A DNA stretch of 53,631 nt from Nemertoderma westbladi (lineage: Eukaryota > Animalia > Xenacoelomorpha). A program made the translations under genes and the position numbers. Below, one piece after another: positions 26,201 through 53,631 of the stretch; the stretch's first letter is position 1; each line of letters starts with the position of its first letter. The DNA is taken from NCBI GenBank assembly GCA_032718475.1, contig JAUCBJ010002158.1, forward strand, positions 1 through 53,631, written 5' to 3'. Under the pieces are notes generated by a model. It made no database searches. It was not told where the DNA came from and saw nothing but the letters and a program-made list of their open reading frames with translations.

Positions 26201-26377
26201 GCCTGTTAAAATTTTAGGAGCGTTCTGATAAAAAATGTTGACAGTGGAGTGTGGAGAGGAGTGTATCACTGGTACACGGATTCAGGATAGAGCGCGCAAT
26301 TTAATGAGATCTGAATTTGAAAACAGTCGGTTTGCCTACTTCTGTACTTTTTAAATGCTGAAATGTTAAAATTTTCG

Positions 26378-29596: not shown

Positions 29597-29688
29597 AGAT
29601 ATGAGTTTCCGATTCTGTTATTCCTTGCCTGATAATCAGATACCTGACATATACCAATACTTGCCTAACAACTCAACCCTACCGGGCC

Positions 29689-31582: not shown

Positions 31583-31591
31583 CCGCTCCAT
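31583..31591 (-). other. Candidate short polypurine tract (PPT; ATGGAGCGG) abutting the 3' LTR
   Basis: Position is immediately upstream of the 3' LTR. The tract is purine-rich but short and interrupted. Confidence 0.45.
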
Positions 31592-35148: not shown

Positions 35149-36951
35149 TTATTTACTAGTATTAGTTGGAGATTTGTAGTCTCCAGACTCGTTACGAGTC
35201 TCTTCAAGAAGTACGAGACGTTGAGTCGGTCTGTCTACTGTACGACCGTCAATTGTCCGTACCGTCACAGTTCTTGTCACTCCATCCATAGATGGATGTG
35301 TGGCTAAAATTACACCTGTTATCCAGAAGCGTCTTTTTAGATTCACTTCTGCTAACAGCACGTGATCTCCCGGCTTTAATGCGCGGGTGTTATTGTACCA
35401 GTTTGTTCTGGCAGAAATAGAGGGCAAATAATGGTTTTGCCATATTTCCCAGAACTTGTTAGCCAGTAGTTGCGTGATTTTCCACGCTTTTCTACCGTAG
35501 CTGTCGCTTTCTGTTGGAATTGAAATAGGCATTAATGTAGTCGGTGCCTGCATAAGCAGGTGTGCAGGTGTTAATGCAAATTGGGATTGTTTGTCATCGG
35601 GTACTAATACTATTGGTCTAGTATTTAGTATTGCCTCGATTTCAACAAACAATGTTGTCAGTTGGTTGTCTGTCAATATGTGGTTTACTGGAATGACCTT
35701 TGCCATGGCTGTCTTTATAGATCTAATCAGTCTCTCCCAGACTCCGCCTCTCCAAGGACTATCTGGAGGATTAAACTTCCAAACAATCTTGTGAGGTTGT
35801 AGTTCGTTCGAGATTTGATCATGATCTAATTTCTTAAAGGCTCTAGCAATCTCATTCCGAGCACCAACAAAGTTTGTCCCTTGGTCTGAGTACAAGCATT
35901 TTACTAGTCCGCGTCTAGCGATAAATCGCCGCAGTGCTAGTATAAACGCGTTGGTGGAAAGATCCATCACACGTTCAATATGAACTGCCCTACTGGACAT
36001 ACATGTGAAAATCAGTCCCCAGCGTTTTACTAGTATACGTCCACGTTTCGTATGTATGGGACCAAAGCAATCAATTCCAGTCTCTGTAAAAGGTGGTCTG
36101 AATGCTTGAAGTCGTGCTTGTGGAAGTTCACTCATTTCTTGGGTACCTATTCTAGAGTGTACCTTTTTACAAATAATACACGTACGTGTCACTGAACTTA
36201 ACGCTTTACTGGGTCTAATTAATACAAATCTTGTACGTAAGTAGGAAAGACAGTGGTGTCTTCCAGCGTGTTTCAGATGTAAATGTGCGTCCAGTATCAT
36301 TGCACGTTGTAGTTCGTGATGTTGCGGTATTATTATTGGGTATCTAAAGTTTGTGTTAAAGTCAATGTTTTGAAGCCGAGATTTATGACAAATTAAGCCA
36401 TTATAAATAATCGGACTCCAACTCAGTATTGGTGACGACTTGATTGGTTGACCTTGATTTATAGATGTGAATTCGCGCGCGAAATATCGCAGTTGGTAAT
36501 GGCGAATTAATTTAATCTCACACCTGTCAATCTCAGCCAATGTAAGTCGACGTGTAAAGTCACGTTTGCCTTTAACGTATTGTACGAAACGTACAATCCA
36601 TGCTAACTTTCGGCAAGCGTTTGACCAAGAGTCTGTTAAGTTTACAATCCGGTCGACGTGAGTATTTGTGACGTCATCAGGTAAGTCAATGGAGATTTTG
36701 GAAGGTTTTGAATTACTAGAAGGGCCCACGGGTCCGCCGGTAAGTATTCCCTTGTTGACTGTTGATCCGTCCGGGTCTACAAGTAATTTGTCCTTCTTCG
36801 TCTTCTTACCTTGATTGTCGGTACTTTGTAAGTCGATCGTTAATGGTGGTTTGAACTCTATGGGGTCAGCAGGTTTCGGTAAACTTAATTTTCTGCCGAC
36901 ATTAATCCCAGGTTTCACCATAGGTTGCAAGTTCGGTATGTCTCTTGAGCG
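35149..36951 (-). CDS. pol: BEL/Pao integrase portion of Pol (HHCC zinc finger, DDE core, DUF5641-like C terminus)
   Basis: HLHLKH...CIIC, GIDCFGP, SDQGTNFVGA, GGVWERLIRSIK, FWEIWQNHYL. The frame is open from the codon right after the TAG at 36952-36954. Confidence 0.92.
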   Translation of the reverse strand, partial: RSRDIPNLQPMVKPGINVGRKLSLPKPADPIEFKPPLTIDLQSTDNQGKKTKKDKLLVDPDGSTVNKGILTGGPVGPSSNSKPSKISIDLPDDVTNTHVDRIVNLTDSWSNACRKLAWIVRFVQYVKGKRDFTRRLTLAEIDRCEIKLIRHYQLRYFAREFTSINQGQPIKSSPILSWSPIIYNGLICHKSRLQNIDFNTNFRYPIIIPQHHELQRAMILDAHLHLKHAGRHHCLSYLRTRFVLIRPSKALSSVTRTCIICKKVHSRIGTQEMSELPQARLQAFRPPFTETGIDCFGPIHTKRGRILVKRWGLIFTCMSSRAVHIERVMDLSTNAFILALRRFIARRGLVKCLYSDQGTNFVGARNEIARAFKKLDHDQISNELQPHKIVWKFNPPDSPWRGGVWERLIRSIKTAMAKVIPVNHILTDNQLTTLFVEIEAILNTRPIVLVPDDKQSQFALTPAHLLMQAPTTLMPISIPTESDSYGRKAWKITQLLANKFWEIWQNHYLPSISARTNWYNNTRALKPGDHVLLAEVNLKRRFWITGVILATHPSMDGVTRTVTVRTIDGRTVDRPTQRLVLLEETRNESGDYKSPTNTSK

Positions 36952-39900
36952 CTAAGTAACACCTGTATTTACATTAGCGTAGGTACTACCCACATCTGTA
37001 ATACATGAGGTTTCACCGTGCTTATGGTTGCTCAAGTGTGTCAAAATTGGTAGTTTGTCAATACAAGGCCGCTCCAATAGGGAAACTGCGGCTTCACTAT
37101 TTGTCAGTACGTTACTAGTGTCTAGTCGACTGTCTAGTAATGTGTCTGGCGATACGTCTGGTAACGTATCTGGTTGTTTGTCAATAGAAGGCCGCTCCAA
37201 TAGAGAAACTGCGGCTTTACTGTTTGTCAGTGTGTTACTAGCGTCTGGTAGAACATTTTGTGATATGTCTGGTAAAATGTCTGGTTGGCTGTCTAGTAAC
37301 GTGTCTGGTTGACCGTCTGGCGATATGTCTGGTGTAGAAAGGCTCGCAAGTCTTCCTCTCTTGACCTTTGAAGTTATATCTTTCCATTTCGCCTTCGGTT
37401 TTTTCTTAAGTTTTGCCGCCGTTGTCTTTTTCTTTACCTTCCCCTTTTTTGGTTTCTTGATTTCCGCGTCCTTAGGGATTGTGTTAGACTTGTTGTCGTA
37501 TAGTGGCGGCCAATGTAGTGTTGAACCTTGTAAGAATTGTGGTCCGTGTTGCCAAAATTCTTTGTTCTCCGGTTTACAGAATTCCTCAGGCATCATTCCT
37601 CGCGACGCAATATCAGCTGGGTTTTGTGGTCCGGGACAATGTCGCCAATCCTCTTTTATTGAACGATCTAGAATTTCTGCGCGACGGTTAGCTACGAATG
37701 TCTTGAATTCAAGTGTGTCGTTGTTTATGTAAAATAAAACCAACGTCGCGTCAGTCCAATAAAATATCTGTAAACTTGACTGTAGTTCTGTCTGTATGAG
37801 GTTCACGATGGTGGTTGACAGGGTTGCGGCTTGTAGCTCAGCTCGTGGTGTCGTCATATACTTAGTAGGCATTGTTTTTGCCTTAGAAGTAATGAGCGAA
37901 ACATCGAATGCTTCTGAGTCTACTTGTCTGCGCAAGTACGCTGCCACACCAAAACCGTTGTCACTGGCGTCAGAAAAACAGTGTAGTTCCAAGTTGTCAG
38001 GAAATGTACTTTGTAATGGAAAGTAAACTCTGGGTATGGAATAATCCTCTAGCGAAGATAATTCCGCCTCCCAGGTCTTCCATAAGTCCACTTGGTCTGA
38101 TGAGATCGGCTCATCCCATGTTAGTCCATCCTTCCAAATACTGCGCATATAAATGCGGGCTTGCAGTATTACTGGACTGATGAATCCTAACGGATCGAAC
38201 AATCGGCTCAATTTTGACAAGCATGATCTCTTTGTCAGTGTGTTCTCGTGACTGTCCAGTCTCACCTTCACTCGGAAGTTGTCCGTGTTTGGGTCCCAAA
38301 AGAGCCCCAACACCTTGGTCGTCGGTAGTGGTTCGAACTCTAGGTCTATGTCACCACCTCCACGCTCAGTCGTTCCGAATGAGTCTACTAATTCGGCACT
38401 GTTTGAGGCGAATTTGGTGAGGTTAAAACCTCCGCCCGCTAAGCAGTCCCGTAATTGATGTGCTACTGTTGTAGCACGTTCTACTGTGTCGCAACTCTGT
38501 AATCCGTCGTCGACGTAAAAGTCACGTTCCACAATCCTAATTATCTCTGGGTCATATAGGTGTTTCTGATCTCTAGCGGCTTGTTTTAGGGCGTACATTG
38601 TGCAATTTGGGCTGTCTCTGGCACCGAAAACGCGAACTTGCATTTGGTAAGTCGCTGGTGGTAGACTTAAGTCTCCTTCCGGATACCAGAGGAACCGCAA
38701 ACTGTGTCTGTCTCGCTCTAACGCTCTCACTTGATGAAACATCGCTTCAACGTCGCAAGTAAAAGCTACTTGACGCTGACGGAAGCGCATAATCACCCCC
38801 ATAAGATAATTATTCATGTTTGGTCCATCCATCAACTCGCTATTGAGGGACATTCCCTCAAACAGAGCCGCACAGTCGTTGACTACGCGTACTTTATCTG
38901 GTTTGTCGGGATGTCTCACATAGTGATGTGGCAGGTAGTATGTCTGGTTAGTCACTATCTCTGGGTTAGTCATTCGGATAGCGTATCCCTTAGTCAAATA
39001 CGTCTCCATCTGAGTGTTGTACTGCAGATGGGCTTTCTCGTCCTTTAATAGACGTTGCCGTATTGAGTGTAGACGTCTTAAAGCCAGTGGGTAGTTGTTT
39101 ATAAGTTTAGGACTTTGGCTACGCCATAACATCCCCACCTCATAATGTCCGTCTTTCGTCTGGCGGATAGTATCTTCCATGATCTTCAGAGATTGTTTCT
39201 CCTGTTCCGACATACAAGGTTCGTAGCTACCAGGTTCAGCTGTATCTTGTTCTAACCACCTGATAGTCTTCTCCGTTAATTCCTTGTCCAGTGCAGCTTG
39301 TTCCATTTGATGATTTCTCAACACGTCATCATCGATCTCGACGGGCATTGTTGATGTCGTTGGGGTAGGTAGACTCGCAAGCCTATCATCTGTCGTCGAT
39401 GGAATCTCTAGCTGACTCGTCTTCTCCCCAAGTTCTAAACTCACCTTGTGGATTAGCTGCTCCTTGTGACTTATCATACTAGTCACATGTCTGTCACGTT
39501 TTGTCGACTGTAGTGTAGTATGGTTCACGTCGTGTGAGAAGGAATGAATTGAATTTGTAGTTAATAAACTACATGTACTTTGTACATCGTCTTCCTCGTC
39601 ACTTACGTCTAGTGTGCGCACAGGCGCTCGAGTATACCACCCTATCGGCGTTCTACAGGCGTATGCGTTTCCCGCTACGACTGCCGATGGTCTGGTTTCC
39701 CACACCTGATGTAGGTTGAATTGGTCCGTCCCGATCAGCATTGCTACCGATCTATAATTGACAGGACATTCAGGTACACCAAGGTGTCTGAAATACTTAC
39801 GGTCCTCTAGAGATTGTTCCGGCACTGGACCTAGTAGGTTACTAAAGTCCTTCGTGGCCGCAAAGGTTAGATCTTTAAAGGGTAACAAAGATCTCTCCCT

Positions 39901-42900
39901 CTCGCTGTGTTGCGATTTTGGAAGAAGAGAGTCTAAGTCCAACTTAACTCGTGTCACTGGTATTGCACGCTGTCCGTGCATACTACTTACGGTATAACTG
40001 ACGCGCTTACCTTGTTTAAGATCCGTCACTATGTCAGCTATCTTTTCATCCACGTAGCTGTGAGATGAGGCTGAATCTAGAATCGCGTAGATTCTCTTGC
40101 TCCCCTTTGTGCCAGTAATCTTAATCAGAATTACACTGAATCCCTTCAGTTGGTCAGTAGTCAGAAGCGCGATCGATGGCTGTTCGTCTCCATTGGAATA
40201 TTCGTCGTCGTCTTCTAACTCTTCGTCCGACGATCCGGATTGTTCTGAGAAGCAATCCTCAATATGGGTCACGAAGGTTGGAGTCGTTTTCGATTCTCGT
40301 TTTCTGTAGGCCGCATCACATCTCGCTGCTGCTTCCGGGTGTTCCCTGGCGAAGCGTTTTGTCGGCGTGTGGCTGTCTGTGTGGAGCAGACCGTCGTGGT
40401 TGCGTCCACAGGATGGACAAGTGTCGGTATTTGGGCAATCCTTGCGAACGTGTCCGTGTCGCGTACACCGCCAACAAGAGTCCAATGGCCGTATTTGCAG
40501 CCGTCGTTCTTCCGAGTTCAACTCGCGAAACTGTCGACAACCCCTCAACTTGTGACCGATATACCGCTTGCCTAGATGCTCGCAGTATTGGCAGCCGCTG
40601 AAGTCGGTACTGAGTTGTTGTCTCGTCTGTTTTATCCCAATGGGCGCAGATACCCTACTACCGTCCGAGAATTGTCGTGATTCCGTTGGTGTGGCGTAAG
40701 TGGCCGTCTTGGTGGATGTTGTCTGGGGTTTTTGTCGGTGGGAGGATGGCAATGTGATTCCTTCTGCCACGATGTGCTGGTCAGTGTAGTTGGATCGAGT
40801 TTCTACTACTGCCTCCCTGGATATTAAAAGGTACACGTCCTCCAGTTTTAAGAATCCACCCCGCTCTTCTCGTTGGTATTCGATCTTTCTCCACTCCCGA
40901 CGAAGTCGATGGTGGAGTCGTCCTATGATCTTTAATAGGACTGTAGGGGTATTCCCATAGTCAAGTTGTCCAATGGATCTTAAAGTAGTGATAGCGTTCC
41001 TTATCTCGTCAGCCAGTTTTAATAAGTCGACGGGTTTAGTGATAGCCCCTCCCTTACAGAGTTCCTCTATTACTGACCTGGCCATACTGACTGTACCTCC
41101 ATATATCGAAGTTAAACGATCGTACGCTAGTTCGAAGGCGTCCGGTACACCAACGAAGGTCTCTGCCAAACGTTTAGGTTCTCCTGACAACGTTTGAAGC
41201 AGGTAATTAAACTTCTCCCGTGATGTAAAGGCGCACACGGCGATCTGGGATTCGATATAGTCTACGAAAGTGTGCCAGTGTTTCGAGCTACCGGAAAACT
41301 TCGGTGGTTGTTGTACCGGCAATCCTTGCCTGGCTGCGAATTTCGCTATCTCCTCGGCAACGTTCAGAGTTTCGCGTCCTTGGTTGGTACACTGGTTGAT
41401 ATTCTCCCTTCTTGGCGCTTTCCCCTGATACGATGTGTTTTTTGAAGGTACCGGTCTTTGTGGTTCCTTCGGGTGTCTATTGTGTTCGAACTCAGTGTTC
41501 CTCGAACTGTCGGTTTGAACTTCCTCCAGACGCTCCTCGATCTGAGCCAACTTGTTAACAACTGGTCGCAGGATGTCGGCGAACTGTTGTGTACTGATTG
41601 CGTCCGTTGGTTGTAACGCCTTCTGTGTTGGTGTATTCTGTGGACGATTGTCTGCTAAGGAGTTGTCTGAACGCTCGCGTTTATATTCATCGGCCGCCCC
41701 TGTTCTAAATACCTCGCGTTTCGGGTAATCCGATTCGCTCGAAGTACTACTATCATCTGGATATGGTGGTCGACGTGCTCGCGTTCGTTGCGTCGTACGA
41801 ATTCTAACGTTTCGTTTTGGAACATCGTCCACTGATCTCCTTTGTTCGGTAGGCTCACAAGTCTTCCTCGAAGTCGTAGATTGCGATGTAAACTGAACCG
41901 GTCGCGTATCCACTGTTCTCCGTTGTTCGGTAGGCTCACAAGTCTTCCTCGAAGTCGTAGATTGCGATGTAAACTGAACCGGTGGTCGGACGACAGCGCT
42001 TGAATCCAAAGGCCTTGTTGGCCTAAACGTCATTGGGTAAGCGTAGTGTGTAACAGGTTTTGGCGTCAAAGGTGGACTCACCTGTTTAGTCGTCAGTAGT
42101 GCAGGTCCGACTAATAAACTACTACGATCTGTAATCGGTGGGTTACTTACCTTGACTTTCGGAATAGGCGACGACGTTGCTCTTGGCGGTGTAAACTTGT
42201 CCGGAATAACAAACCTGTGTTCCGTCGCACCATGGATAGGAGAAATATTACTACTACCAGCAATCGAAACAGGTTCCTTAGTCGTAACCGGTGCAAACAT
42301 ATGAGTTACCTGAGGGAATCTTTGACATAAGTCTTTAACTAATTGTCTTTCTCGTCCAGGTGCCCCTACCGAACCTTCCTTCATTCGTTCCTGGATTTGG
42401 CGGTGCCTTACCTCTAACTGGTCTAGATCGTGTCCATCTCGAGATCTCATCGATCGATCGCGGGCTTGTAGATCCAGATCTTCCTTCGCGTTGGCTAATT
42501 CTCTCGCCTTCTTCCTGAGTTCGAAATGAAGTTTAACTTCCTTCTCGCGTTGTTCCGTCTGTTGTTGTTGCGCCTCGAGCTCCGCTTGTCTTATCGCTGA
42601 TTGAGCCTTTATTTGCCGTTTTTTCATTTCAGCTCTTGCTTCCGAAACTCGCTTGTGTTCTTCCAATTCCGCTGCTCGTCGTTCTAGTTCCGCTGCTGCT
42701 GCTCGTCGCTCCGACTCCGCTGCTTGTCGTTCTAACTCAGCTGCTGCCGCTTGTTGCGCTAACTCAGCTGTCGCTGTTCGCTGTGCTATTTCTAGCTCCA
42801 ACCTTTCCATCTCAGCCGCTTCCAACTCGGCTTGTTCTTGCAGATGAGAGATTCTTGCAACATTCGCAACGCGTAGTTTCTCTTCTTGCACGGCTGCTTG

Positions 42901-43785
42901 TGCCGTCAGCAGTTGAGCTTGTTCCTCCGCTTCCCGTTGTTGTCTGTCGTGCTGTTGTTGCTGTCTGGAAATTTCTGACGTCACTATACTTATCTCGCCA
43001 ATTTCGCTGCGAATACTCACTAACGATTGGTCCAGTATTCCCGGTGCCGATTCGATTCGTACGGGTGAAGTTTCCCTCGTATATTCCGGCACGGTTTCCG
43101 AATCGCCGACGTCTTCGCCGCACATACGTAAGTGGTCCGTCAGATGTTTCAATTGTCCATCCAGTCGGTACAGTTCCTGTTCTTCCTCGGGTTGTAATAA
43201 TTCGTCCGAAACTGACTCACCTAACAACTGGTCTGCTTGTTCCTGTTGTATCTGCCTAATCGTCGACTTAAACTGAATCAGTTTCTCTCTAGCGATCATT
43301 AGTTTCTCGAGGATTCTAAGTTGAGTATCCATGTCCTGTCTCTGTCTAGCTAGATCTTGTAGGCCAACTAGATTATCTACGGACTTATATACTTTACTCT
43401 GTACTCTAACCTGGAGGGTGTAGAACTCGAATCGAGACATCGGAGCGGTCAACTCGTCTAATATGCGTTGGCCTTCTCCAATACTCCTGGTAATATGCGC
43501 CATGTATCCACCGACGCTTCTAACCACGCTCTCCTGGCTTCCTGCTGAACTTACCATGTCCGTTTCCCTGTATCTAGGTTGCGGAACAGTTAGAAAGTCC
43601 TCGGTCCTGCCGTCGCCTCGTACTACGGCATCCGGTACTCCCGTTGGATGTACTGGTGACGCACACGGTGTAGGTTCGGTAGGCTCGCGAGTCTTCCCCT
43701 GTTGTTCTTCCGCTGCTGACTTATCTCCGTTGCATGAGTCATAGTCGGTAGGTGTATTCTTCGTATAGTCTTGTTTGTCACTCAT
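36952..43785 (-). CDS. gag-pol: BEL/Pao Gag-Pol polyprotein (coiled coil, DUF1759-like capsid, three Zn knuckles, aspartic protease, RT, RNase H)
   Basis: PKFSGSSKHWHTF/EKFNYL, CWRCTRHGHVRKDC, CPSCGRNH, ILDSAS, YYLPHH, FYVDD, HCFSDAS, PRAELQAA, NPADIASRG. 2277 aa. Confidence 0.97.
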   Translation of the reverse strand: MSDKQDYTKNTPTDYDSCNGDKSAAEEQQGKTREPTEPTPCASPVHPTGVPDAVVRGDGRTEDFLTVPQPRYRETDMVSSAGSQESVVRSVGGYMAHITRSIGEGQRILDELTAPMSRFEFYTLQVRVQSKVYKSVDNLVGLQDLARQRQDMDTQLRILEKLMIAREKLIQFKSTIRQIQQEQADQLLGESVSDELLQPEEEQELYRLDGQLKHLTDHLRMCGEDVGDSETVPEYTRETSPVRIESAPGILDQSLVSIRSEIGEISIVTSEISRQQQQHDRQQREAEEQAQLLTAQAAVQEEKLRVANVARISHLQEQAELEAAEMERLELEIAQRTATAELAQQAAAAELERQAAESERRAAAAELERRAAELEEHKRVSEARAEMKKRQIKAQSAIRQAELEAQQQQTEQREKEVKLHFELRKKARELANAKEDLDLQARDRSMRSRDGHDLDQLEVRHRQIQERMKEGSVGAPGRERQLVKDLCQRFPQVTHMFAPVTTKEPVSIAGSSNISPIHGATEHRFVIPDKFTPPRATSSPIPKVKVSNPPITDRSSLLVGPALLTTKQVSPPLTPKPVTHYAYPMTFRPTRPLDSSAVVRPPVQFTSQSTTSRKTCEPTEQRRTVDTRPVQFTSQSTTSRKTCEPTEQRRSVDDVPKRNVRIRTTQRTRARRPPYPDDSSTSSESDYPKREVFRTGAADEYKRERSDNSLADNRPQNTPTQKALQPTDAISTQQFADILRPVVNKLAQIEERLEEVQTDSSRNTEFEHNRHPKEPQRPVPSKNTSYQGKAPRRENINQCTNQGRETLNVAEEIAKFAARQGLPVQQPPKFSGSSKHWHTFVDYIESQIAVCAFTSREKFNYLLQTLSGEPKRLAETFVGVPDAFELAYDRLTSIYGGTVSMARSVIEELCKGGAITKPVDLLKLADEIRNAITTLRSIGQLDYGNTPTVLLKIIGRLHHRLRREWRKIEYQREERGGFLKLEDVYLLISREAVVETRSNYTDQHIVAEGITLPSSHRQKPQTTSTKTATYATPTESRQFSDGSRVSAPIGIKQTRQQLSTDFSGCQYCEHLGKRYIGHKLRGCRQFRELNSEERRLQIRPLDSCWRCTRHGHVRKDCPNTDTCPSCGRNHDGLLHTDSHTPTKRFAREHPEAAARCDAAYRKRESKTTPTFVTHIEDCFSEQSGSSDEELEDDDEYSNGDEQPSIALLTTDQLKGFSVILIKITGTKGSKRIYAILDSASSHSYVDEKIADIVTDLKQGKRVSYTVSSMHGQRAIPVTRVKLDLDSLLPKSQHSERERSLLPFKDLTFAATKDFSNLLGPVPEQSLEDRKYFRHLGVPECPVNYRSVAMLIGTDQFNLHQVWETRPSAVVAGNAYACRTPIGWYTRAPVRTLDVSDEEDDVQSTCSLLTTNSIHSFSHDVNHTTLQSTKRDRHVTSMISHKEQLIHKVSLELGEKTSQLEIPSTTDDRLASLPTPTTSTMPVEIDDDVLRNHQMEQAALDKELTEKTIRWLEQDTAEPGSYEPCMSEQEKQSLKIMEDTIRQTKDGHYEVGMLWRSQSPKLINNYPLALRRLHSIRQRLLKDEKAHLQYNTQMETYLTKGYAIRMTNPEIVTNQTYYLPHHYVRHPDKPDKVRVVNDCAALFEGMSLNSELMDGPNMNNYLMGVIMRFRQRQVAFTCDVEAMFHQVRALERDRHSLRFLWYPEGDLSLPPATYQMQVRVFGARDSPNCTMYALKQAARDQKHLYDPEIIRIVERDFYVDDGLQSCDTVERATTVAHQLRDCLAGGGFNLTKFASNSAELVDSFGTTERGGGDIDLEFEPLPTTKVLGLFWDPNTDNFRVKVRLDSHENTLTKRSCLSKLSRLFDPLGFISPVILQARIYMRSIWKDGLTWDEPISSDQVDLWKTWEAELSSLEDYSIPRVYFPLQSTFPDNLELHCFSDASDNGFGVAAYLRRQVDSEAFDVSLITSKAKTMPTKYMTTPRAELQAATLSTTIVNLIQTELQSSLQIFYWTDATLVLFYINNDTLEFKTFVANRRAEILDRSIKEDWRHCPGPQNPADIASRGMMPEEFCKPENKEFWQHGPQFLQGSTLHWPPLYDNKSNTIPKDAEIKKPKKGKVKKKTTAAKLKKKPKAKWKDITSKVKRGRLASLSTPDISPDGQPDTLLDSQPDILPDISQNVLPDASNTLTNSKAAVSLLERPSIDKQPDTLPDVSPDTLLDSRLDTSNVLTNSEAAVSLLERPCIDKLPILTHLSNHKHGETSCITDVGSTYANVNTGVT

Positions 43786-44583
43786 TTCGGTAGTTGTAAG
43801 TCAAGTAAAGTGAGTGTCAAAGTATCAAACTTACCGTATTTGTATAAAACGGTACTAATTACAGTCATATAAAATTAGCCTACCGGCCGATTTTATAGCA
43901 GATGGATAAAATTAGCCTAAACGGCCAATTTTACAGCAAATAAATGTCACGGTATAAGTATATAATAAAATTAGCCTAGCGGCCAATTTTATAACAAATA
44001 AATCGGATAACGATATGCGTTATCAAAAGGTAAATTAAATACAATAATACGGACTAATTCAGCAATGAACAAAGAAATCATACGGAATGCATAAATACTT
44101 GAGACAGTGGAACCCACAATAATTTTAACTAATACGGTAATGCCTAACTTATTTATGCAACTTTTCGAACTCACCCACTCCAATAATTCTCCAGAAAAAC
44201 AGATTCCCAGATACAAACCGGACGTGAACCTTTCCGTTTTTAACGTTGCGGACGAAACGCGATTTTCCCAACCAAAGTTGTTGAGTTATCTATCTCCCAA
44301 ACTTGCTAAACACGGTCTTGCTCCCGTTACAGTCTAGAAATGAGTTCTGAATCCTGAAAAACAAAAGAGTTAGGTTTTACTTTACGAAAATTTTTTGTAC
44401 CGGTACAATATGGTATTTAAACCCTTTTAAACACCGGTATTCAATTCCAAAAATATTTTACACGCGGTTCAAATCAAATTTTATTTCAAAAAATTAGCAC
44501 TTAGCTAATCAAATACAAATTTTTACCTCAAAATACAAAATTTTCAAATATCTTTAGTCCTACCGAACCGTAGTTCAGTAAAA

Positions 44584-44594
44584 CACATTCCTAC
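44584..44594 (-). promoter_or_regulatory. Non-tRNA primer-binding site GTAGGAATGTG (putative self-priming)
   Basis: Directly follows the 5' LTR, lacks TGG, and is exactly complementary to CACATTCCTAC in the LTR (45629-45639 and 30717-30727, minus strand). Confidence 0.75.
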
Positions 44595-46494
44595 TATTCG
44601 AAGAGACAGCAACAATACCTGCAATATCTTACTGTAAAGTTTGTAAATCAAATCATAAATCCGACCTTCTCACCAAAACAGTAAACTCTAAGTAAGCGAA
44701 TATATTGCAGTATCGATCTCTTATAACCGGTGAGGCAGAAAACAGTCTACGAGCAGACAAACTTCGATGAAACAAAATCCCGCGCAGCGAATCCTAAAAT
44801 CAGGCTGACTCACTGACGGACTAAGGGGCTCGTACACTTTGCCGCGGTGTGATTTATATGGTTTGGGCGAAGAGACGCTAGCTAGGTACACAGGCAGAGA
44901 TTTGGAGATGTCTAACTAGCGGGCAAAGCACAGTACGGACAAAAGTTAATTTTATATATTTTGAGGTGTAAATAATTTCTAACGCGCGTGTGTTAATTCT
45001 GAACGGTCAAAAACAGTTTTGCTCCTTCACATATATAATTACTGGGTACGGTGTGCATTTTACGAATATTCTAATTTTGTAACTTGTAGGTCCAATACTC
45101 ACGAATGATAAGGTTCCTTCCCCTCTTGCGTATTTCCAGGACTCAAATTCAGGCATAAAGTTAATGCTACGCCCAGAATTCGGCAATTTTAATTTACCAG
45201 GTCCCTGATACTAAGAAGAGATGTGTTAGTTTACTACTGTAGGCGTACAGTTACTAATAGCTATCCTGGCTCCTATCTAGAATTTTAGTCACCCAGGTAG
45301 TCCGGGTAACTTCCTATTAGGGCGTTGGCGGGGACACGGTAGATGTTAGTATCCCTAATAGCCTCAATTTATTTGCGCCTAGCTGTAAACTGCCCTACCG
45401 CCTGAACGGTACAATCCCAATTCAGGTGAAAACACAGCAACCCCCCTAGCCTACAAGTTCTAATGCAATGGACACTGTCGTACTACAAATAGTCGCACAC
45501 ACACCTGCACTTAGCAAGAGTTAGGCGTACAGTTTGCTGCACCCTACCAATTTGTATGCTTCGTACCGGTGTGCCTACGTCCTATCTGCGTACTAGTATC
45601 TGCCTGCGCTCTCTCTCCCCCCGTGCCCGTAGGAATGTGAAGGTCTACTGTGGGTTTTCCTGAATCGAGACAGTACAGTCCCTAAGATGTAATTTTAGGC
45701 TCACAGCGTGTCACTACTTCTACCTTTTGATCTTTTGGTCTTATACTTAGGTAGCAAGGCGTCGAACGCTGTCTAACCTTTCAGGCGATGGGCGAATAAC
45801 TCAAGATGGTATTGCGGGTTGTCTCTTGCCTACATTCCCGTGATGTTCCCGTTCATTGCTGCGGCCCGATCTCTAGCTGGCCATCCTGTCCCTTAGCTGG
45901 GTTCACCGTAGTGAATCATGGTAAAAGAAAAGCAGATAGCGGTATTTCTGAATTTATTGCAGATAATAATACAAAATGTAATCTGAATACTAATGACAGA
46001 ATAAACAAATATCAGATAACTCAGAGAGATAGATTATGGTATATAACTAATGAACAAATCGCACCTTTATATAGCAAATTTGTGCTGCAATCAATCGAGA
46101 AAATTCTCGATTGTTCTATAGGTTCTAACAAGGTTTTAAAGATAGCTATTGGTCCAGCTAATGTATAACTTGCACGACATTGGATACAATCTAATAACTG
46201 CAGTCTCATTGGTTAATCTAGGTACAAACGAATGCAATTTAATTTGTAGCGGTCAATTTAAATGAGTTGAAATTCTGCACAAAAAATAATTCGCACTTAC
46301 TAGGATTCGAACTCAATACCTACTACATATATAATTTCCAACGCTCTACCGACTGAGCTACTGAACCACTTGACCAATAGGCGTTCAAATGATAGAACAA
46401 ATACGAATGAGAACTCAAAGCAATCTTTACAAAGTTAATTCGAATAAAAATAAAATTTTGAAAATCCACGGCATTTAGGGAATATAATTCTATA
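44595..46494 (-). repeat. 5' LTR of family 1 (1900 bp)
   Basis: Direct repeat of 29689-31582. Reads TAT...ATA on the element strand. Confidence 0.95.
46293..46367 (-). ncRNA. tRNA-derived Pol III cassette, 5' LTR copy
   Basis: Same sequence as 31381-31455. Confidence 0.65.
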
Positions 46495-46578
46495 GGGCCT
46501 GAAATGAAAAATCATTGTTATCAGGACTTCTACGCGTAGCACCTACGCGTAGCTACGCGTAGCACCTACGCGTAGTTG

Positions 46579-46910
46579 TTACTACTACTAGGTCGAGCGA
46601 ACTCGGACAGTGGAAATGAGATCCTTCCAGGCTTCCCGATTCTCCATAGTTGTCGCAATTTCGTTTCTCCCAAGTTCAGTATCCCTTTCAAGTTGATCTA
46701 TATATGTTATGGCCGGTCGTCCACGACTACGCTTTCCATGAGTTGGTTGCCAGAGAAGTAGATCTGGTATGACCTCGTCTTTACTTCGCCAGCAGTGCCC
46801 ACTGAATCTTAATCTGCGTTCACGGAGGGTGGTTGATACAGGTGGTATTGTACCATAAAGCTCGGCGTTTGTCATGTGTTGTCTCCAGCTGATGTTTAGG
46901 GCTGCCCTTA
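46579..46910 (-). mobile_element. 5'-truncated RTE-clade LINE fragment
   Basis: RRLRFSGHCWR...LLLWQPTHGKRSRGRP...ENREAW is the RTE ORF C terminus. It is followed by a (TAG)n tail. Confidence 0.85.
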
Positions 46911-47463
46911 GTAAGAAAAAAGTTAAAAAGGCAGTAAGTCTGGCCCTACCGGTACATGACAGGAATGGAAGTTACAAACTACGCGTAGCTACGCGTAGGT
47001 CGAAAAGATTTACCCTACTATCTTGACTATTTATTCTGCCTGTCTGGGTGTCTGCTATTACTGCAGTACCGGGTACTGTCAGACTGTATTTATGTGAACT
47101 TAATTGGAAAATTTCCTTGCTCACTACGCTCGCATTTTAATGTTAAAATACTAGGGCTACAGCATTATAAACTGATAAATTATTACAATTCAGCAATTAC
47201 TGCAAAATTTCATAGTCAATTGTTGGCTTGGCAGTTGGCACTTGGCTGCTTGGCGCGCATTGGATATCATGGCTGGCGCGATTTTCGTTTAACCAGAACG
47301 CGTGTGGCGCGCTTTTTGTCTTCAGTCTTGAAAATCTTGCCCCAGTCACCGCCCCCAGTCTGCCAGTTGCCAGTTAACAGATGGTATGGCCTTGTATATA
47401 GTACGCCTTGACTGCATTAGGGCTGTAGACTAATATAATAATAATAATAATATACTACTGCAT

Positions 47464-47850
47464 CTAATACTCGGAACGCATGAGGAGGGGGGCGCAGTCT
47501 TTATAGGGAAAGAGGGAGGAGAACCTACAGCTATTTTGAAAGACTATTTTGAGTTCTATATGGGGGAAGCATCGAAATAAACGTAATAGGCGATTCTTAA
47601 TTAGAATGCCGTGGTGACCCGTGAATGGAAGGCATATCATCACGGGGCGTTTTGGAACAGACTGGGAGGTGGCTGGAGGGTTATTTAGTCTAGAGAGAAA
47701 GAGATTGGTGACAGAGTCCATTAGTGACTTGGGGTAGCCATTGGAGCGCAAGGTGGTGCAGAGATCAACTATACTGGAATGGAATGTAAGATAACTAGAT
47801 GAAATATAAAACAATCTACTAATAAGAGTATAAATCAAACCAAATTTATA
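47464..47850 (-). pseudogene. Penelope-like retroelement fragment (RT thumb/linker before GIY-YIG), cut by the family 2 BEL/Pao insertion
   Basis: Motifs LRSNGYPKSLM, LPFTG and LFPYKD..P...RS. The sequence ends at the LTR starting at 47856. Confidence 0.75.
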
Positions 47851-47855
47851 ATTGC

Positions 47856-49116
47856 TGTAAAAGCTTCTGTGGGATATAACTGGCCCCTTTGCTTCGCAAT
47901 CCAGTTTCCCCCCAGGCGCTGGAATACTCTAAAAGGTTCTCTAACTGTATATATATTCCCCTCGCCCGCAAGGTACCGTTACAGGTGTTTTAACGGACAT
48001 AAAAGTCATTCTGCTATATACGTGTTTTAGCGGACATGGTAAGGCAAAAAACCTGCAATGCACCAAATACCTTTCACAGCTTAGCCGTGATGATTCATAT
48101 TACGACATCTAACAGCTGGTTGCTGACATGGAAACAGCCATTGGACGCATGGTTCTTTGTTTGGCTTGAGCCAATCAGAGCGATTTTTCCTGTCGACGTG
48201 TAGCTTTTCGGCCGATCATAAGGAGAGTGTTCAGTCTTACTGTTTTTTCTTGATACTTTGTGTTATTGCTATCTAGGCCAGGAACAACGGCTCTAGAGTC
48301 AATTCGTTTTCATACTTTAGAAGAAACATTAGTAGGCTTAAATTATAGAGCGTATGACTGTTATCGATTCATATCAATGCATAACAATACTTTGTTCACA
48401 TCTTGTCATATCATATCTTAACTTACCGTCTTAATGCTGTTTACTGTTGTGTTTTGGTTGAATATTATTTGGAGAACATATATAAAGAACCCAAATTTCC
48501 CAATTTTCTTGATACACTACAGGTTAGAGAGGCGGGTTATATATAGCGATTGCGACTTATATTGTTGTGGTTTGTAGTGAATTTAATGCTATTTGATAAG
48601 CACTACATTGGTCCGTTGCTGTTCTCTTTATATATGATAAAAATCATTGACGGTCGGCAAATTAGTGGGCAGTATTGTGTGTTACCGGTAGTGTGCATGA
48701 TTGTGATTGATAACTAAGCATTTCCTAAAGAATGCGCCTCATACGTGAATCATAAGCCTTACCGACTTACCGTTGTGATTAGTATAAGTCATATCTCTGT
48801 CTATTTAAATAGAGCGCCACGTCCTAAAGGAACTGTTAATATTTCCCGAAAGTAAATAATATTAGTCAGAAATTAATTATTAACGATCAATCGAATAATA
48901 CAATACCGTAAGCTTCACTGCAATAATAATTTAAGCCGACAGAATCCAGTCTCCCGGGATTATCCAGCGGGTGAATGGATGCGCACTAGGCTGGCTTCTG
49001 CTAATGTTGTGTTTATTGGTATTAAATATTTGTCATCTTCTAAAGTATATTTATAAACCAAAAGACATATAAAATTTGGCAGGTTAAACTGCTAAAGGTC
49101 TTCAAAAGCGCGTACA
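47856..49116 (+). repeat. 5' LTR of family 2 (1261 bp)
   Basis: TGTAAAAGC...GCGCGTACA. Both ends are defined by homology to the TSD-bounded solo LTR at 28413-29596. Confidence 0.9.
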
Positions 49117-49127
49117 ATAACAGTCAT
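49117..49127 (+). promoter_or_regulatory. Non-tRNA primer-binding site ATAACAGTCAT (putative self-priming)
   Basis: Directly follows the LTR, lacks TGG, and is exactly complementary to ATGACTGTTAT at 48354-48364 in the LTR. Confidence 0.75.
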
Positions 49128-51382
49128 TGACTTTATTGCAGTAAGCAATAAAGTTGAAAGTACCGGTCAACCGGTAAACCTGAACCGGTACTTCTGTAGG
49201 TCAGTAGGCCCAACTGCCAGAACCGGTACTGCTGTAGGTCCGTAGGTCCAACTGCCAGAACCGGTACTTCTGTAGGTCCGTAGGCCCAACTGTCCTAACC
49301 GGTACTTCCAGTACAAGTACATTAGTATTATTTCGATTGTGATCTATAGTATATTGTAGGCTGCCAGGGGAATAGGGATTGATCACCCCTCATTCTTTTG
49401 TATAGTTTACTTATTTCTGTCAGTTTTATTTCCTAGTAAGTTAATATTGAGCTGAAGACGTGTAAGTCTGCTCAGATTGTTCAGATAATTGTAGGCCGGA
49501 CTGTTGTCAGATTGTTGTTGGGTTTGGAGAGATTACGGCGTGTGTGGAGTTTGTCCGATAGAGTGCCAGTTAGTAAGTTGGGGCAGCCATTGCTGTAAGG
49601 TCAATCCCCTCTTAAAGAATAAGTCGTACTACCGTGTTAGAACGCATACTAACTAACAATTTTGGAATCTGCACATACTGTAGTTTATTTAGGCTTGACA
49701 GTATTCTGCCAGCGTTTTGGCTTGTGTTTGTTTGTGTGGTCTGTTCAGATACCGTAATAGTTATTACTCAGATATTTTGTAGGCTGGATTGTTGTCTAGC
49801 TATTATTAGGTCTGAAGAGATTGCTGCTTGTGTAGAGTTTGTCTGATAAAGTGCCAGTTAGTAAGTTGGGGCAGTCATAACTGTAAGGTCAATCCCCTCT
49901 TAAAGAATAAGTCGTACTACCGTGTTAGAACGCATACTAACTAACCGTTTTGGAATCTGCACATACAGTAGTTTATTTAGGCTTGGTGGTAGTCTGCCAG
50001 CGTTTGGTTTGTATTTTGTTTGAGTATTCTGTACGGGTAGCGTAATATTTATTATTCAGAGTTTATGCGATTATTCGCAACATTCATGTCCCCAAGTTTA
50101 TTCCTACAGTAATTGTGTTTGTTACACATACCGTTATAGTTAAATTAACCCCGGTACTACACGGGCTGCTTGGCGTAGGTAAAGACTGGTGACTTTGTGC
50201 TCTGGTCACTCCAGCAGATGCCGTGGTTCTTTTAACTGTTCAAGTATAATTAACTACTGATTATTTGTTGTACCAGTACTTGTACCTAATTTAGGGTTTA
50301 GTGTACAGTGCTTTCCGAAGGTAATTGGTGTGTAGGCAGTATATTTGTGTTGTAAAGTGGTTAATAGGCACTTTGGATCTGGTAGTCCGCGGTAATTAAC
50401 TTCCAGGTAGGAACACTCCGTGATACATAACATAGTACCTATAGCGATACGGTTATAGGTCGTCAGGCGGTGGTATTTTCCTATCTGGACAGTGCAATAT
50501 ATTTACTACTACTTATTATTTTCAAATACCGTAGTACCCTGTCCGTTGTAATAACCAGAAAATCTAACCCTTTGTTAGGCTGGTTTGTAGACTTCCTGTA
50601 AAATTACCCTAAAAATTCGTACGTAATATTTTGTTGTGTTTAATTAGAGATTTAATCTCACCCGTATCGTAGGTAATTCGTAGTATTAAGTAACTTAGGT
50701 AAATTAGAATTATCTGTTTTAGTGTCCCATAAATAGCACTTCACTGAGAGCGCACAGCTTCTGTGTAGTGACCCCCCAGAAATAATAACATTTATTTCAA
50801 ATATTGACAAAACCCTTTTAAACGGGTATATATCTATTATAAATCAACTCAAACGATTTATAAATAGTAGGCCTGCCATACAACAACTAGGTCTCAATAT
50901 CAGTTGGACTACTGCTTAAATAACGGTAACAAAGTAAGTTAAAGTAACCAAGTAACCCTAAAATATTCAGAAATTCAATTATTCTAAAAATAATTGACAT
51001 ACCGGTATTTACCATAGGCTTATTATATTTATTTCTATAAATTTTTGCTGAACTCATACCGGTATTCTGTGATTAATTCTAGTTCATAATTATACTTATA
51101 TATACTATAAGTGTAAGCTGTATACCGGTATTCACGATAGGCCTATTATATATTTATATATATTTGCGCTAAAATTATATACCGGTACTCTGTGACAAAT
51201 CTAGTCTGTAATAATACTTATATATATACTATAAGCATACCGGTATTCTAATATATTATATATATATCACGCTACACTGAGTAGCAGTATCGGTAATTAA
51301 TTACTAGGCTAACAGTGATACTGAATTACTAGACTTGCTTTAACTGTAATATAGCAGTAGGCATTCAACTGTACAAACAAAC

Positions 51383-53631
51383 ATGTCTGACACAAAACGG
51401 GCACTGTCAGATAGTCTTTTGGAAGGTGTTAGAATGAGTCTTAGACTTGGACAGGGTCTTGAAAGGAAGATGGCAGAGGCAATGGCAACATCAGAAGCGA
51501 AAAGAAAGGCGGCAGAGGCAATGGCAACAGCAGAAGCGGAAAGAAAGGCGGCAGAGACAATGGCAACAGCAGAAGCGGAAAGAAAGGCGGCAGAGGCAAT
51601 GGCAACAGTAGAAGCGGAAAGAAAGATAGAGACACCTGTACTCCCAGAACCTGCCTATAAATTCCCTTTGTACAGTACTAAACTACCTGTGCCCAGTAGG
51701 ACTGTTCCCGAGTCCGAACCCGTCCTGGACGCCGAGCGAGATATCAAGAATTTATCGCCCGTCGTCTCTCGCTCGCCCGCTACTACGTTGGCGACTCCCG
51801 CTTCGGCGGTTGAGTGGGTAGCTGAGGGACGACGGGAGATGGGTCTCTTGCTCGAGCAGCTGAGGGAACACTGTTTGTGCTCCTCTCAGCAGGTCCGGGA
51901 AATGGAAGAGACTGTTCAGCAGCTCAAGGGAACAGTCAGGGAAAGCAGGTTAGAGTTGCAAAAGGTGCAGCAAAGTATCGCGTTAGAACGCGATAAATTA
52001 GTCAATTTACAAAAGGGTATACCACCACCCCCTGTAACAATGTGTCAACCCGTTAGGTCTGAAGTATCTCATGCGCAAGGTGTGGAGCCTACACGCATCT
52101 ATACTGCTAGTGAAGTAGATACTCCTATAGTAAACCCTATTCAGGGTAATTATAAACCTGTTGATAATAATATTCCATATAGACCTGATCATAATCCGAG
52201 AAATTTATATACCGATAATTCTATATTCAATAATACGATGGTTCAAGAAAGTTTTACGCGTCAAATGGCTAGAACCGAAGCCCGTCAAGCGGTAAGGGTT
52301 GGAGAGATCGTCAAGTTCAATGGAGATGAGATGAAATGGTTACCTTTTAATGAATATTACAAAGATAACATACAGAATTCTGTGCTATCTAACGGAGAGA
52401 AACTCAGATACCTCATCGAATGCTTGGAAGGACCTCCCAAGTTAATGGCGTTAAAATTTATTGGACATCCAGATGGATTAAGACAAGTTTGGGATACATT
52501 AAACATCAGGTATGGTAATAGGACTAACATAGCTAGGCATTTATATGCGAAATTAATGGCGCCCCGAAAGTTTCTTAGCAGCGGGATTATAGAATTTTCC
52601 GATGAGATTCAGGAGATCTGTAGACAGCTAGATTGGTTAGGTAAGTCTCATGAATACCAGAACTCTATGGTTGTAGGAGCCTTAGCATCTACTTTACCAA
52701 AGGGTGGAGTAGGTACACGCTGGGACAAGAAAGTGTTATATATGATGGAACAACAACAACGAGACCCTACCATGGCTGATCTCATGTCCTTCTTAGATAG
52801 TGAAGTAAAATTACAACTCATAAAGCAGTCCAGAGAGAAAACATCGGAAAATAAGGTAAGTGAGAAACCCGTTTCTAGGAGAAGGGTAACACCAGTGTGT
52901 TATACTGACGACGACGAAAGCCAAGTCTCTCAGGAAGAGGACAGCGGGAAAGACACAGCAAAATCTTACTATGATAACAAGACCTATAAAGACGTAAGTA
53001 AATATAAGTCTCGAACCAGTGACAGGAGAGAACAGGTAACAACAACTCCTCCTACGTCTCCTAAGAGAATTCACGGAAGAAAGCCCGAAGAAAGAACGAG
53101 AGTGCATAACGTTACCCAAGGTAAAGTGAGTAACATCAAACCAAAATGTGCGCTGTGCGACGGGCCCCACCGTTTGAGTGTGTGTGCTGAATTCCTAAAG
53201 AAATCCCTGGTAGACAGACGTGAAGTCATGTGGGATAAGCGGTTATGCTATAATTGCCTCAGACCAGGACACCAACGGCGAACCTGTTACTCCGAAGTAA
53301 AGTGTGCAAAGTGCGGTGCGAAACATCACATCTTGTTACGCAGTGAATTCGAACGAAACAACCCGAGTCAGGTAAGTGAGCCCGAACTACATGTCCAATT
53401 CAGTGATGTAAATGACACTGATCAAGAGTCTGAGATGGAAGGATTCTATACGGACGAATTCTCCGACGCCAACGAATCCTGTTACCTAATAAATACCGCA
53501 GTGTATCGAGCACTTACGTATGAAAAGGACACCGACAATGAGTTCCCCCCAACTACCTTTGACAGACAACCATCTTGGAAACCTCCAACTTCCAACGTAG
53601 GAATCAGAGAATTTCCTGTAGTGCAGTGCAG
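51383..53631 (+). CDS. gag: BEL/Pao Gag(-Pol) of family 2, 3'-incomplete (missing from the ORF track, presumably because no stop occurs in the window)
   Basis: Manual translation from ATG 51383: MSDTKRALSD..., AEAMATAEAERKA repeats, VKFNGDEMKWLPF and EKLRYLIECLEGPP (DUF1759-like), CALCDGPHRLSVC, CYNCLRPGHQRRTC, CAKCGAKHH. Frame checked at 52301 and 53141. Confidence 0.9.
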   Translation, partial: MSDTKRALSDSLLEGVRMSLRLGQGLERKMAEAMATSEAKRKAAEAMATAEAERKAAETMATAEAERKAAEAMATVEAERKIETPVLPEPAYKFPLYSTKLPVPSRTVPESEPVLDAERDIKNLSPVVSRSPATTLATPASAVEWVAEGRREMGLLLEQLREHCLCSSQQVREMEETVQQLKGTVRESRLELQKVQQSIALERDKLVNLQKGIPPPPVTMCQPVRSEVSHAQGVEPTRIYTASEVDTPIVNPIQGNYKPVDNNIPYRPDHNPRNLYTDNSIFNNTMVQESFTRQMARTEARQAVRVGEIVKFNGDEMKWLPFNEYYKDNIQNSVLSNGEKLRYLIECLEGPPKLMALKFIGHPDGLRQVWDTLNIRYGNRTNIARHLYAKLMAPRKFLSSGIIEFSDEIQEICRQLDWLGKSHEYQNSMVVGALASTLPKGGVGTRWDKKVLYMMEQQQRDPTMADLMSFLDSEVKLQLIKQSREKTSENKVSEKPVSRRRVTPVCYTDDDESQVSQEEDSGKDTAKSYYDNKTYKDVSKYKSRTSDRREQVTTTPPTSPKRIHGRKPEERTRVHNVTQGKVSNIKPKCALCDGPHRLSVCAEFLKKSLVDRREVMWDKRLCYNCLRPGHQRRTCYSEVKCAKCGAKHHILLRSEFERNNPSQVSEPELHVQFSDVNDTDQESEMEGFYTDEFSDANESCYLINTAVYRALTYEKDTDNEFPPTTFDRQPSWKPPTSNVGIREFPVVQC

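Follow-up and report, generated by a model that had tools for sequence, protein, structure and literature searches.

Described primer systems of LTR retrotransposons

The first 11 bases of Tf1 pair with its primer-binding site (PBS), the RNase H cut falling between bases 11 and 12 (PMC7175516, PMC4600332). Two element families of Nemertoderma westbladi resemble Tf1 and Tf2 of Schizosaccharomyces pombe, Tj1 and the Tf1/sushi group in having no tRNA PBS and in carrying, within their own LTR, 11 nt complementary to the PBS. The Tf1/sushi elements are Ty3/gypsy chromoviruses, whereas the elements described here have BEL/Pao proteins, being Tf1-like in logic and not members of that group. ICTV describes the Belpaoviridae as having a PBS of 18 nt that pairs with the 3' end of tRNA-Arg or tRNA-Gly, with LTRs 0.2-1.2 kb long and genomes between 4.2 and 10 kb (PMC8742986). 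Self-priming has been predicted from PBS-LTR complementarity for plant Tcn1 (gypsy) and TAR/Houba/Osr-1 (copia), and the switch away from tRNA has therefore occurred more than once; these elements differ from the present ones in belonging to other superfamilies, and the accessible portion of the source mentions no intron-split primer (PMC6317226).

In the literature covered, mainly the main text of open-access papers, neither self-priming nor an intron-split primer is described for BEL/Pao elements. Cer7, a BEL-family element of C. elegans, reportedly supplies its own primer, a tRNA-like RNA from its internal region; the primer predicted here differs from this in being an LTR segment of the transcript.

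Two BEL/Pao families and their primer-binding sites

The window, which is the whole 53,631-nt stretch analysed (contig JAUCBJ010002158.1), contains the following parts of families 1 and 2:

44595..46494, minus strand, family 1 5' LTR (1900 bp, non-canonical TA...TA ends)
29689..31582, minus strand, family 1 3' LTR (1894 bp)
46495..46499 (partner 29684-29688), no strand, target-site duplication GGGCC (5 bp) flanking family 1
31583..31592, minus strand, family 1 predicted PPT, a purine-rich tract adjoining the 3' LTR
36952..43800, minus strand, family 1 frame of 2282 codons for gag, protease, RT and RNase H (in-frame TAG at its end)
35149..36951, minus strand, family 1 integrase-region frame (Integrase_H2C2, weak, and DUF5641; same frame past the stop)
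32480..33991, minus strand, extra ORF of 503 codons with three zinc knuckles, between family 1 pol and 3' LTR
47946..49116, plus strand, family 2 5' LTR (1171 bp, TG...CA ends)
51350..53629, plus strand, BEL-type gag frame, likely of family 2 (DUF1759, triple Cys-His; runs past the window end)
28413..29569, minus strand, older LTR copy of family 2 (identity 83%, no adjoining PBS)

Family 1 belongs to BEL/Pao by its Gag and Pol domains, which include DUF1759, Peptidase_A17 and DUF5641 (PF03564, PF05380 and PF18701), and it has the paired LTRs, target-site duplication and PPT by which BEL/Pao elements are recognized. Among 564 homologues at E<=1e-30, each of the best 120 contains PF05380. The two LTRs share 99.6% identity; a single substitution and an indel of 6 nt, the latter at the 3' edge of the primer site, set them apart. 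The frame includes an RNase H-like region of predicted activity. The likeness to Belpaoviridae extends to the gag-PR-RT-RH-IN order, the three named domains, the triple Cys-His gag, the LTRs, the PPT and the 5-bp duplication, whereas family 1 departs from the ICTV description by the absence of a tRNA PBS, the 1.9-kb TA...TA LTRs, the length of 16.8 kb and the extra zinc-knuckle ORF. That ORF gave zinc-knuckle matches alone in the Atlas search, all under 0.9, and has no match among 80 relative loci. Family 2 is truncated by the window end, with neither pol/RT nor 3' LTR inside the window, and its LTR and gag are accordingly joined by position only; the gag ORF with DUF1759 (PF03564) lies 2.2 kb downstream of the LTR and is 24% identical to the family 1 gag. 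By proteins the window elements are BEL/Pao, yet they depart from the tRNA priming described for that group. The sites concerned are the following:

44584..44594, minus strand, family 1 PBS GTAGGAATGTG, directly after the 5' LTR, no TGG
45629..45639, minus strand, family 1 predicted self-primer, perfect 11-nt PBS complement, 3' end separated from the LTR end by 1034 nt
30717..30727, minus strand, family 1 predicted primer copy in the 3' LTR
44558..44583, minus strand, family 1 post-PBS hairpin (11 bp including G-U pairs, C(UACG)G tetraloop)
49117..49127, plus strand, family 2 PBS ATAACAGTCAT, directly after the LTR, no TGG
48354..48364, plus strand, family 2 predicted self-primer, 11-nt PBS complement, 3' end separated from the LTR end by 752 nt
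49127..49157, plus strand, family 2 post-PBS hairpin (11-13 bp)

As the initial annotation had described, both sequences directly following the 5' LTR start without TGG, each matches its LTR perfectly over 11 nt with a mismatch flanking either side, and a hairpin stands right after the PBS in both families (z about -5). Neither the two families nor any of the 27 curated relatives has a PBS starting with TGG, so that the site described for Belpaoviridae, complementary to a tRNA 3' end, is missing. Among LTRs generated from a dinucleotide model, the 11-mer occurs at offset 0 in 1/4000 (family 1) and 3/4000 cases (family 2), rising to 7/4000 and 9/4000 with offsets 0-4 permitted. The hairpins have energies of -12.1 (family 1) and -12.3 kcal/mol (family 2), with z values of -4.87 and -5.25, reached by 0/200 shuffles. 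Primer:PBS pairs dominate the folds of the whole R-U5-PBS region in both families (most pair probabilities 0.75-1.0), and in one 100-nt fold per family U5 folds on itself, with the post-PBS hairpin in place of a Tf1-like U5-leader stem. The older family 2 LTR counts against self-priming, as its 11-mer (29158-29168) contains one substitution resulting in an A-C mismatch.

ARAGORN and Rfam matched no tRNA gene and no further RNA family in the window's LTRs, 11-mers included, and a tRNA scan returned none in the window and none in the 44 of 80 relative loci scanned. An A-box/B-box-like stretch in the family 1 U3 accordingly finds no support as a primer gene; it lies in the part of U3 missing from most copies (depth drop beyond 45912).

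Public sequencing-run material, which consists of assembled contigs only, contains both families in high copy number, and contigs from three runs that belong to different studies span the LTR-PBS junctions. In divergent subfamilies the homology holds through the 11-mer and ends just after it (joints at 48365). A family 1 variant in three runs keeps the first 8 letters of the PBS before diverging (loose end at 44587); it is known from the PBS side, its LTR partner not being readable. No variant lies inside the PBSs or 11-mers among the best-supported 40 listed (66 and 87 further exist), which does not prove invariance.

Self-complementary PBSs and predicted split primers in relatives

The complementarity and its position at the LTR end, observed in the window together with the hairpins, recur with changed sequence in relatives of about 40% RT/RNase H identity. 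Among 12 relatives with both LTR ends defined, the ends being set by LTR-LTR divergence, 11 contain a 10-15-nt self-complement <=4 nt from the LTR end, where 0-2/300 shuffled leaders reach an equal match; eight of these exist only across a GT-AG junction and three are contiguous. A blind search with the LTR end unknown found a 10-13-nt match 0-5 nt past an ...ACA end in 6/10 loci, two of the six repeating families counted already. In a uniform scan (>=10 nt, <=5/100 shuffles), 23/58 loci pass against about 3 expected, 19 of them spliced and 4 contiguous, and 35/58 fail, many without an LTR on the contig. Locus L079 failed at first (54/300) and gave 0/100 once its LTR end was re-set. An unconstrained scan for self-complements was discarded as too noisy to count, as loose searches return false matches of 10-12 nt, and the viral contigs scanned contain no relative locus.

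Hand curation yielded 27 families, 21 intron-split and 6 contiguous, including loci that fail the uniform null (L018, L019, L023, L026, L056, L061, L062, L067 and L074). The 29 families, window included, carry 26 distinct PBSs, none with a TGG start; each PBS is matched only by its own LTR or that of a near relative, and non-self PBS/primer pairs are mismatched on average at 5.7/10 positions. Within one clade (SH-aLRT 99) the PBS differs at 2-5/10 positions and the LTR partner follows. The duplex edge keeps within 0-5 nt of the end of the LTR, the point where DNA synthesis has to begin. A suspected symmetry between the PPT-LTR and LTR-PBS spacers was dropped, being by eye true of some relatives and false in others.

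The introns predicted in the 21 split families are T-rich and 37-466 nt long, with donor GTAAGT in 11/21 and acceptor YAG in 20/21, a consensus match that is partly built in because splice-site filters belonged to the search. Family 1 has one possible site of this kind:

44882..45102, minus strand, possible family 1 GT-AG intron (221 nt), whose junction yields a second, 8-nt PBS complement

Its location is typical of relatives, 34/1000 shuffles do as well in this post hoc comparison, and the candidate intron is possibly a relic or chance. Split and contiguous forms interleave on a quick RT tree, in which family 2 has no RT from the window, and at least 5 changes are forced; family 1 forms a long branch with no supported placement among marine-invertebrate relatives, in a tree without named reference elements.

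The tRNA-independent self-priming BEL/Pao lineage proposed initially thus gains strong comparative support from the changing self-complementary PBSs of deeply diverged relatives, but not as a uniform architecture. The contiguous 11-mer is not the usual form, 21/27 curated relatives having a predicted intron-split complement, and by this prediction the window families are of the contiguous minority type; the post-PBS hairpin is not shared either, as 0/27 relatives fold below -8 kcal/mol there. The hairpin and the long primer-to-LTR-end distance (1034 and 752 nt here, versus 46-290 nt in the 21/27 relatives where it is measurable) are two peculiarities of the window families.

Probable self-priming and its alternatives

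Because the usual tRNA site is absent and the LTR match is an exact 11 nt, the element's own RNA likely primes copying, and both families, which are BEL/Pao-type elements, probably prime reverse transcription with LTR-derived RNA. Transcription would start at or upstream of the 11-mer, the LTR-derived 11-nt stretch would pair with the PBS, and the primer would be cut at the 3' edge of this stretch, likely by the element RNase H as in Tf1. The downstream R-U5 (about 1030 nt in family 1, 750 nt in family 2) would loop out, and the post-PBS hairpin may stack on the duplex or compete with extra 5' pairing. The scheme differs from Tf1 in that 750-1030 nt separate the primer site from the LTR end and the primer is possibly not the 5' terminus of the RNA. 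Immediately 3' of the PBS there is a hairpin, and no stem between U5 and leader is predicted; among BEL/Pao relatives, moreover, a predicted intron interrupts the primer. Points against the reading are the long primer-to-LTR-end distances, the missing U5-leader stem in the folds made, the absence of a clear TATA box, the family 1 variant at 44587, the loci failing the uniform scan and the unsupported placement of family 1.

Alternatively, the element may encode a primer acting in trans: a short transcript of a solo LTR or a 3' LTR, its intron (if any) removed by splicing, would bind the PBS on a different genomic RNA, and the long R-U5 would then not have to loop out. The high copy number in public contigs, the long primer-to-LTR-end distance, the solo-type LTR in the window and the primer RNA reportedly encoded by Cer7 speak for such a source, which is nonetheless improbable, as cis folding already favours the primer:PBS duplex and no tRNA-like or other RNA gene lies over the 11-mers. 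Similarly improbable is a pairing with another job (circularisation, packaging/dimerisation, translation control or PBS shielding), an internal tRNA fragment or other host RNA priming at or near the site. Half-tRNA priming exists in copia lineages (PMC6317226), but the 26 different PBSs in 29 families find partners only in their own or near relatives' LTRs, their duplex edge sits 0-5 nt from where DNA synthesis must start at the LTR end, and a TGG for a mature tRNA 3' end is missing.

It is very unlikely that the working primer of family 1 is the splice junction 45102/44881 and the contiguous 11-mer a secondary duplicate. The strong GTGAGT donor, the 221-nt intron, the acceptor 287 nt from the LTR end, the 34/1000 shuffles and the 13/15 letters common with the 11-mer context favour the junction, whereas its match is of 8 bp only and was found post hoc, 146/2000 shuffles reach the same alignment to the 11-mer region, family 2 has no equivalent site, and one contig crosses the donor unspliced (from a run guessed to be RNA, which may be DNA). 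Chance inverted repeats or an assembly artefact, for which the AT-rich, repeat-rich DNA and the 10-12-nt false matches of loose searches could be cited, are hardly credible against the shuffle nulls for window families and relatives and the junctions covered in three runs of different studies.

Within the self-priming reading, it is rather probable from the comparison of relatives that a large aquatic BEL/Pao branch swapped tRNA priming for a self-primer built by the spliceosome. In most relatives the primer would be complete only once the host spliceosome removes an LTR intron that splits it; only the cap-proximal 5' copy would lose the intron, the 3' copy from which the LTR is rebuilt would retain it, and splicing would therefore license reverse transcription. 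Lineages that have lost the intron, including the two window families, would have their primer ready-made and would have acquired a hairpin for stacking or switching behind the PBS and a kilobase-long R-U5, their contiguous forms likely arising by intron loss, when a spliced 3'-LTR copy was passed on at reverse transcription. If true, self-priming would correct the taxonomy-level statement of Belpaoviridae as tRNA-primed, make BEL/Pao the third LTR superfamily with self-priming and account for PBS finders returning nothing on many aquatic BEL/Pao elements; a splice-completed primer would make the onset of reverse transcription depend directly on RNA processing by the host and let the elements escape control by tRNA supply or tRNA fragments.

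As to the RNA start, no clear TATA box occurs 30 nt upstream of the 11-mer in either window family. Extended 5' pairing is not significant in these two (70/300 and 18/300), and over the 29 families the extra pairing 5' of the perfect duplex has a mean z of -0.74, with 5/29 at p<=0.05, a weak aggregate signal hinting that the RNA may start further upstream than in Tf1.

The two BEL/Pao elements and their primer-binding sites

The window sequence is animal DNA rich in repeats, in which two BEL/Pao elements are recognized by the following features:

29689-31582 and 44595-46494, minus strand: LTR pair of family 1 (99.6% identity; whole element 16.8 kb)
47946-49116, plus strand: LTR of family 2, with TG...CA ends

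Family 1 has a target duplication GGGCC, LTR ends TA...TA and a purine-rich tract preceding the 3' LTR, and its long frame, containing DUF1759 and Peptidase_A17, is closed by an in-frame TAG, behind which the next frame holds integrase-region domains, with a further zinc-knuckle ORF after it. In family 2, a DUF1759 gag begins 2.2 kb downstream of the LTR and runs off the window. The gag identity between the families is 24%, and both are highly repeated, with their LTR-PBS junctions covered by contigs from public sequencing runs. The TAG of family 1, a young element, is the single in-frame stop that separates its RNase H region from its integrase region (36952-36954, minus strand); it is flanked by long low-complexity inserts and is either a copy-specific defect or programmed read-through. 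The further ORF (32480-33991, minus strand; three zinc knuckles, env position), possibly an RNA chaperone, has no match in 80 related loci and only weak generic matches in an Atlas search. TA instead of CA also ends the LTRs of three related loci (L018, L034 and L079; TG...TA).

The self-complementary PBS of both families is a real feature. The initial annotation had claimed an 11-nt stretch within each LTR (the 11-mer, a predicted self-primer) perfectly complementary to the PBS directly after the 5' LTR, and re-reading of the sequence bore out the positions of both 11-mers and their complements; the hairpin claimed behind the PBS also stands (z -4.9 in family 1, -5.3 in family 2). When the stretch from the 11-mer through the PBS is folded, 10 of the 11 positions pair between the two with probabilities of 0.75-1.0, in one family as in the other. 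Folding also offers the hairpin 5' arm an alternative partner just upstream of the 11-mer, a pairing which is not significant in either window family (70/300, 18/300) and gives only a weak signal over 29 families together (mean z -0.74; p<=0.05 in 5 of them). In some divergent subfamilies in the public-run contigs, homology extends through the 11-mer and ends directly behind it, a family 1 variant (44587; loose ends in three runs) keeps only 8 PBS letters followed by a near-copy of the LTR 3' end, and an older family 2 LTR has one mismatch within the 11-mer. The 5' and 3' LTRs of family 1 show only two differences, one of which is a 6-nt indel at 45625-45630 (3' LTR near 30717), exactly at the 3' edge of the predicted primer.

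Related loci and predicted intron-split primers

The best homologues of the family 1 RT/RNase H region are 38-44% identical, their named hosts being corals, other cnidarians, sea urchins, molluscs, lancelet, hemichordate, nemertean and tunicate. Metagenome contigs were scanned with an alignment of 45 homologous proteins, and the best 80 of at least 548 confirmed loci were used, in 12 of which both LTR 3' ends were fixed from the divergence between the two LTR copies. In several of these 12, a pyrimidine tract and AG immediately precede a 6-9-nt stretch complementary to the sequence behind the LTR. With one GT-AG intron allowed in the LTR, perfect complements of 11-15 nt span the junction in 8/12 loci (predicted split primers), and contiguous complements of 10-11 nt occur in 3/12; for each of these 11 loci, 0-2/300 shuffled leaders gave a complement as long as the one observed. 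The locus L079, which gave no complement in this test, yielded an 11-nt junction match (0/100 shuffles) after its LTR end was re-set by an end-motif rule.

In a blind test with the LTR end unknown, 6 of 10 loci gave 10-13-nt matches 0-5 nt after an ...ACA end. Of the four misses, L038, L062 and L073 have junction matches once the splice rules are relaxed, and L016 has one found via its 3' LTR. A uniform scan, passed by a complement of at least 10 nt reached by at most 5/100 shuffles, covered 58 of the 80 loci, 22 being left out by eye (start too near the RT match, or circularly permuted). It was passed by 23 loci (19 spliced; 4 contiguous, including the doubtful and unused L041) against about 3 expected by chance, and failed by 35, in many cases because the contig carries no LTR. 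The hand-curated set comprises 27 families after four near-identical copies were dropped, nine members not passing the uniform null. The predicted primer is split in 21 and contiguous in 6, and its duplex with the PBS is 10-15 nt long with an edge 0-5 nt from the end of the LTR. The split families possess GTAAGT donors (11/21) and YAG acceptors (20/21), in a search that itself filtered for splice-like sites. The shortest predicted primer intron (37 nt, GTTTGT donor) is that of L067, which fails the uniform scan. Contiguous and split forms interleave on a quick IQ-TREE tree, where at least 5 changes are forced; the branch of family 1 is long and has no supported placement.

The predicted intron-split primer, the most striking part, is located in the relatives and not in the window's own families, both of which have contiguous predicted primers. 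The distance from primer 3' end to LTR end is 1034 nt in family 1 and 752 nt in family 2 versus 46-290 nt in relatives (21/27 measurable), and a strong post-PBS hairpin is found only in the window's two families, the 27 curated relatives folding at 0 to -7.9 kcal/mol.

Probable priming in cis and its alternatives

The LTR-PBS self-complementarity sits exactly where minus-strand synthesis must begin, and across the relatives the pairing is kept while the sequence changes (26 distinct PBSs in 29 families, i.e. 27 curated plus the window's two). By analogy with Tf1, both window families quite probably prime reverse transcription with their own RNA in cis. In Tf1, the PBS pairs with the first 11 bases and the RNase H cut falls between bases 11 and 12 (PMC7175516). 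Besides Tf1/sushi and Tj1, for which self-priming is described, plant Tcn1 and the copia TAR lineage are predicted to self-prime (PMC4600332, PMC6317226). In working mode the window elements would be like Tf1, whereas by their own proteins they are BEL/Pao. As in Tf1, the LTR-derived stretch would pair with the PBS and be cut at its 3' edge, leaving a 3'-OH, and all sequence upstream of the cut, any intron included, would be restored using the RNA's 3' LTR copy. Because of this restoration, an intron in the LTR could persist where splicing hits only the cap-proximal copy; splicing of the 3' copy would remove it for good, and this would account for the recurrence of contiguous forms. In general, recognition of a first 5' splice site is cap-dependent.

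The element Cer7 reportedly encodes its own primer; that an element-encoded primer is here supplied in trans is unlikely. It is similarly improbable that the pairing has another role and a host primer is used. Across the 29 families, non-self primer/PBS pairs are mismatched on average at 5.7/10 positions, and full non-self matches (12/812) occur among families with a shared PBS. Host tRNA-Arg or tRNA-Gly primes at an 18-nt PBS in Belpaoviridae as described by ICTV (PMC8742986); TGG follows the LTR in 0/12 loci with fixed ends. A second candidate site in family 1 is an 8-nt match across a junction with donor 45102 and acceptor 44881, a position typical of relatives (34/1000 shuffles). This match may be a relic but is post hoc, and it is very doubtful that the element works through it. 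Chance complementarity is scarcely credible, since a dinucleotide model of each LTR gave the complement in 1/4000 (family 1) and 3/4000 (family 2) trials, or 7/4000 and 9/4000 with offsets 0-4 allowed.

No report of a self-priming BEL/Pao element was found in the literature searched, with Repbase notes, subscription papers and supplements outside the search. Term searches of BEL/Pao papers (PMC554778, PMC3118150, PMC6238403, PMC8220671), whose subjects are Sinbad, the metazoan superfamilies, molluscs and an annelid, gave no priming passage, and passages of PMC5443660, PMC3601003 and PMC3391268 offer nothing further on self-priming in BEL.

Further features of the window

The family 1 U3 contains a stretch with tRNA-like A and B boxes and a T run behind them (46369-46295, minus strand), which receives no call by ARAGORN or Rfam and falls in an upstream block of about 570 nt seemingly missing from most copies (depth drop beyond 45912). 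Base-pairing of its 5' end with the arm of the post-PBS hairpin, two G-U pairs included, is conceivable and probably due to chance. One divergent family 1 contig (run X4) carries a dense plus-strand T>C cluster (window 44913-45032), i.e. A>G on the element sense strand; the pattern, known from this single contig, resembles ADAR hyper-editing that reverse transcription has fixed. At 7303-10257 lies a foldback-like element, a near-perfect palindrome about 3 kb in length, with a 12-bp tandem array next to it (about 10200-12190). Two 1.6-kb direct repeats (15452-17053 and 24235-25834; 99% identity, 8.8 kb apart, without a long ORF between) may have arisen by local duplication or may belong to a non-autonomous LTR element. 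MITE-like repeated elements with terminal inverted repeats and the palindromic unit CTACGCGTAG are located at 19662-19843, 26375-28414 and 46530-47020.
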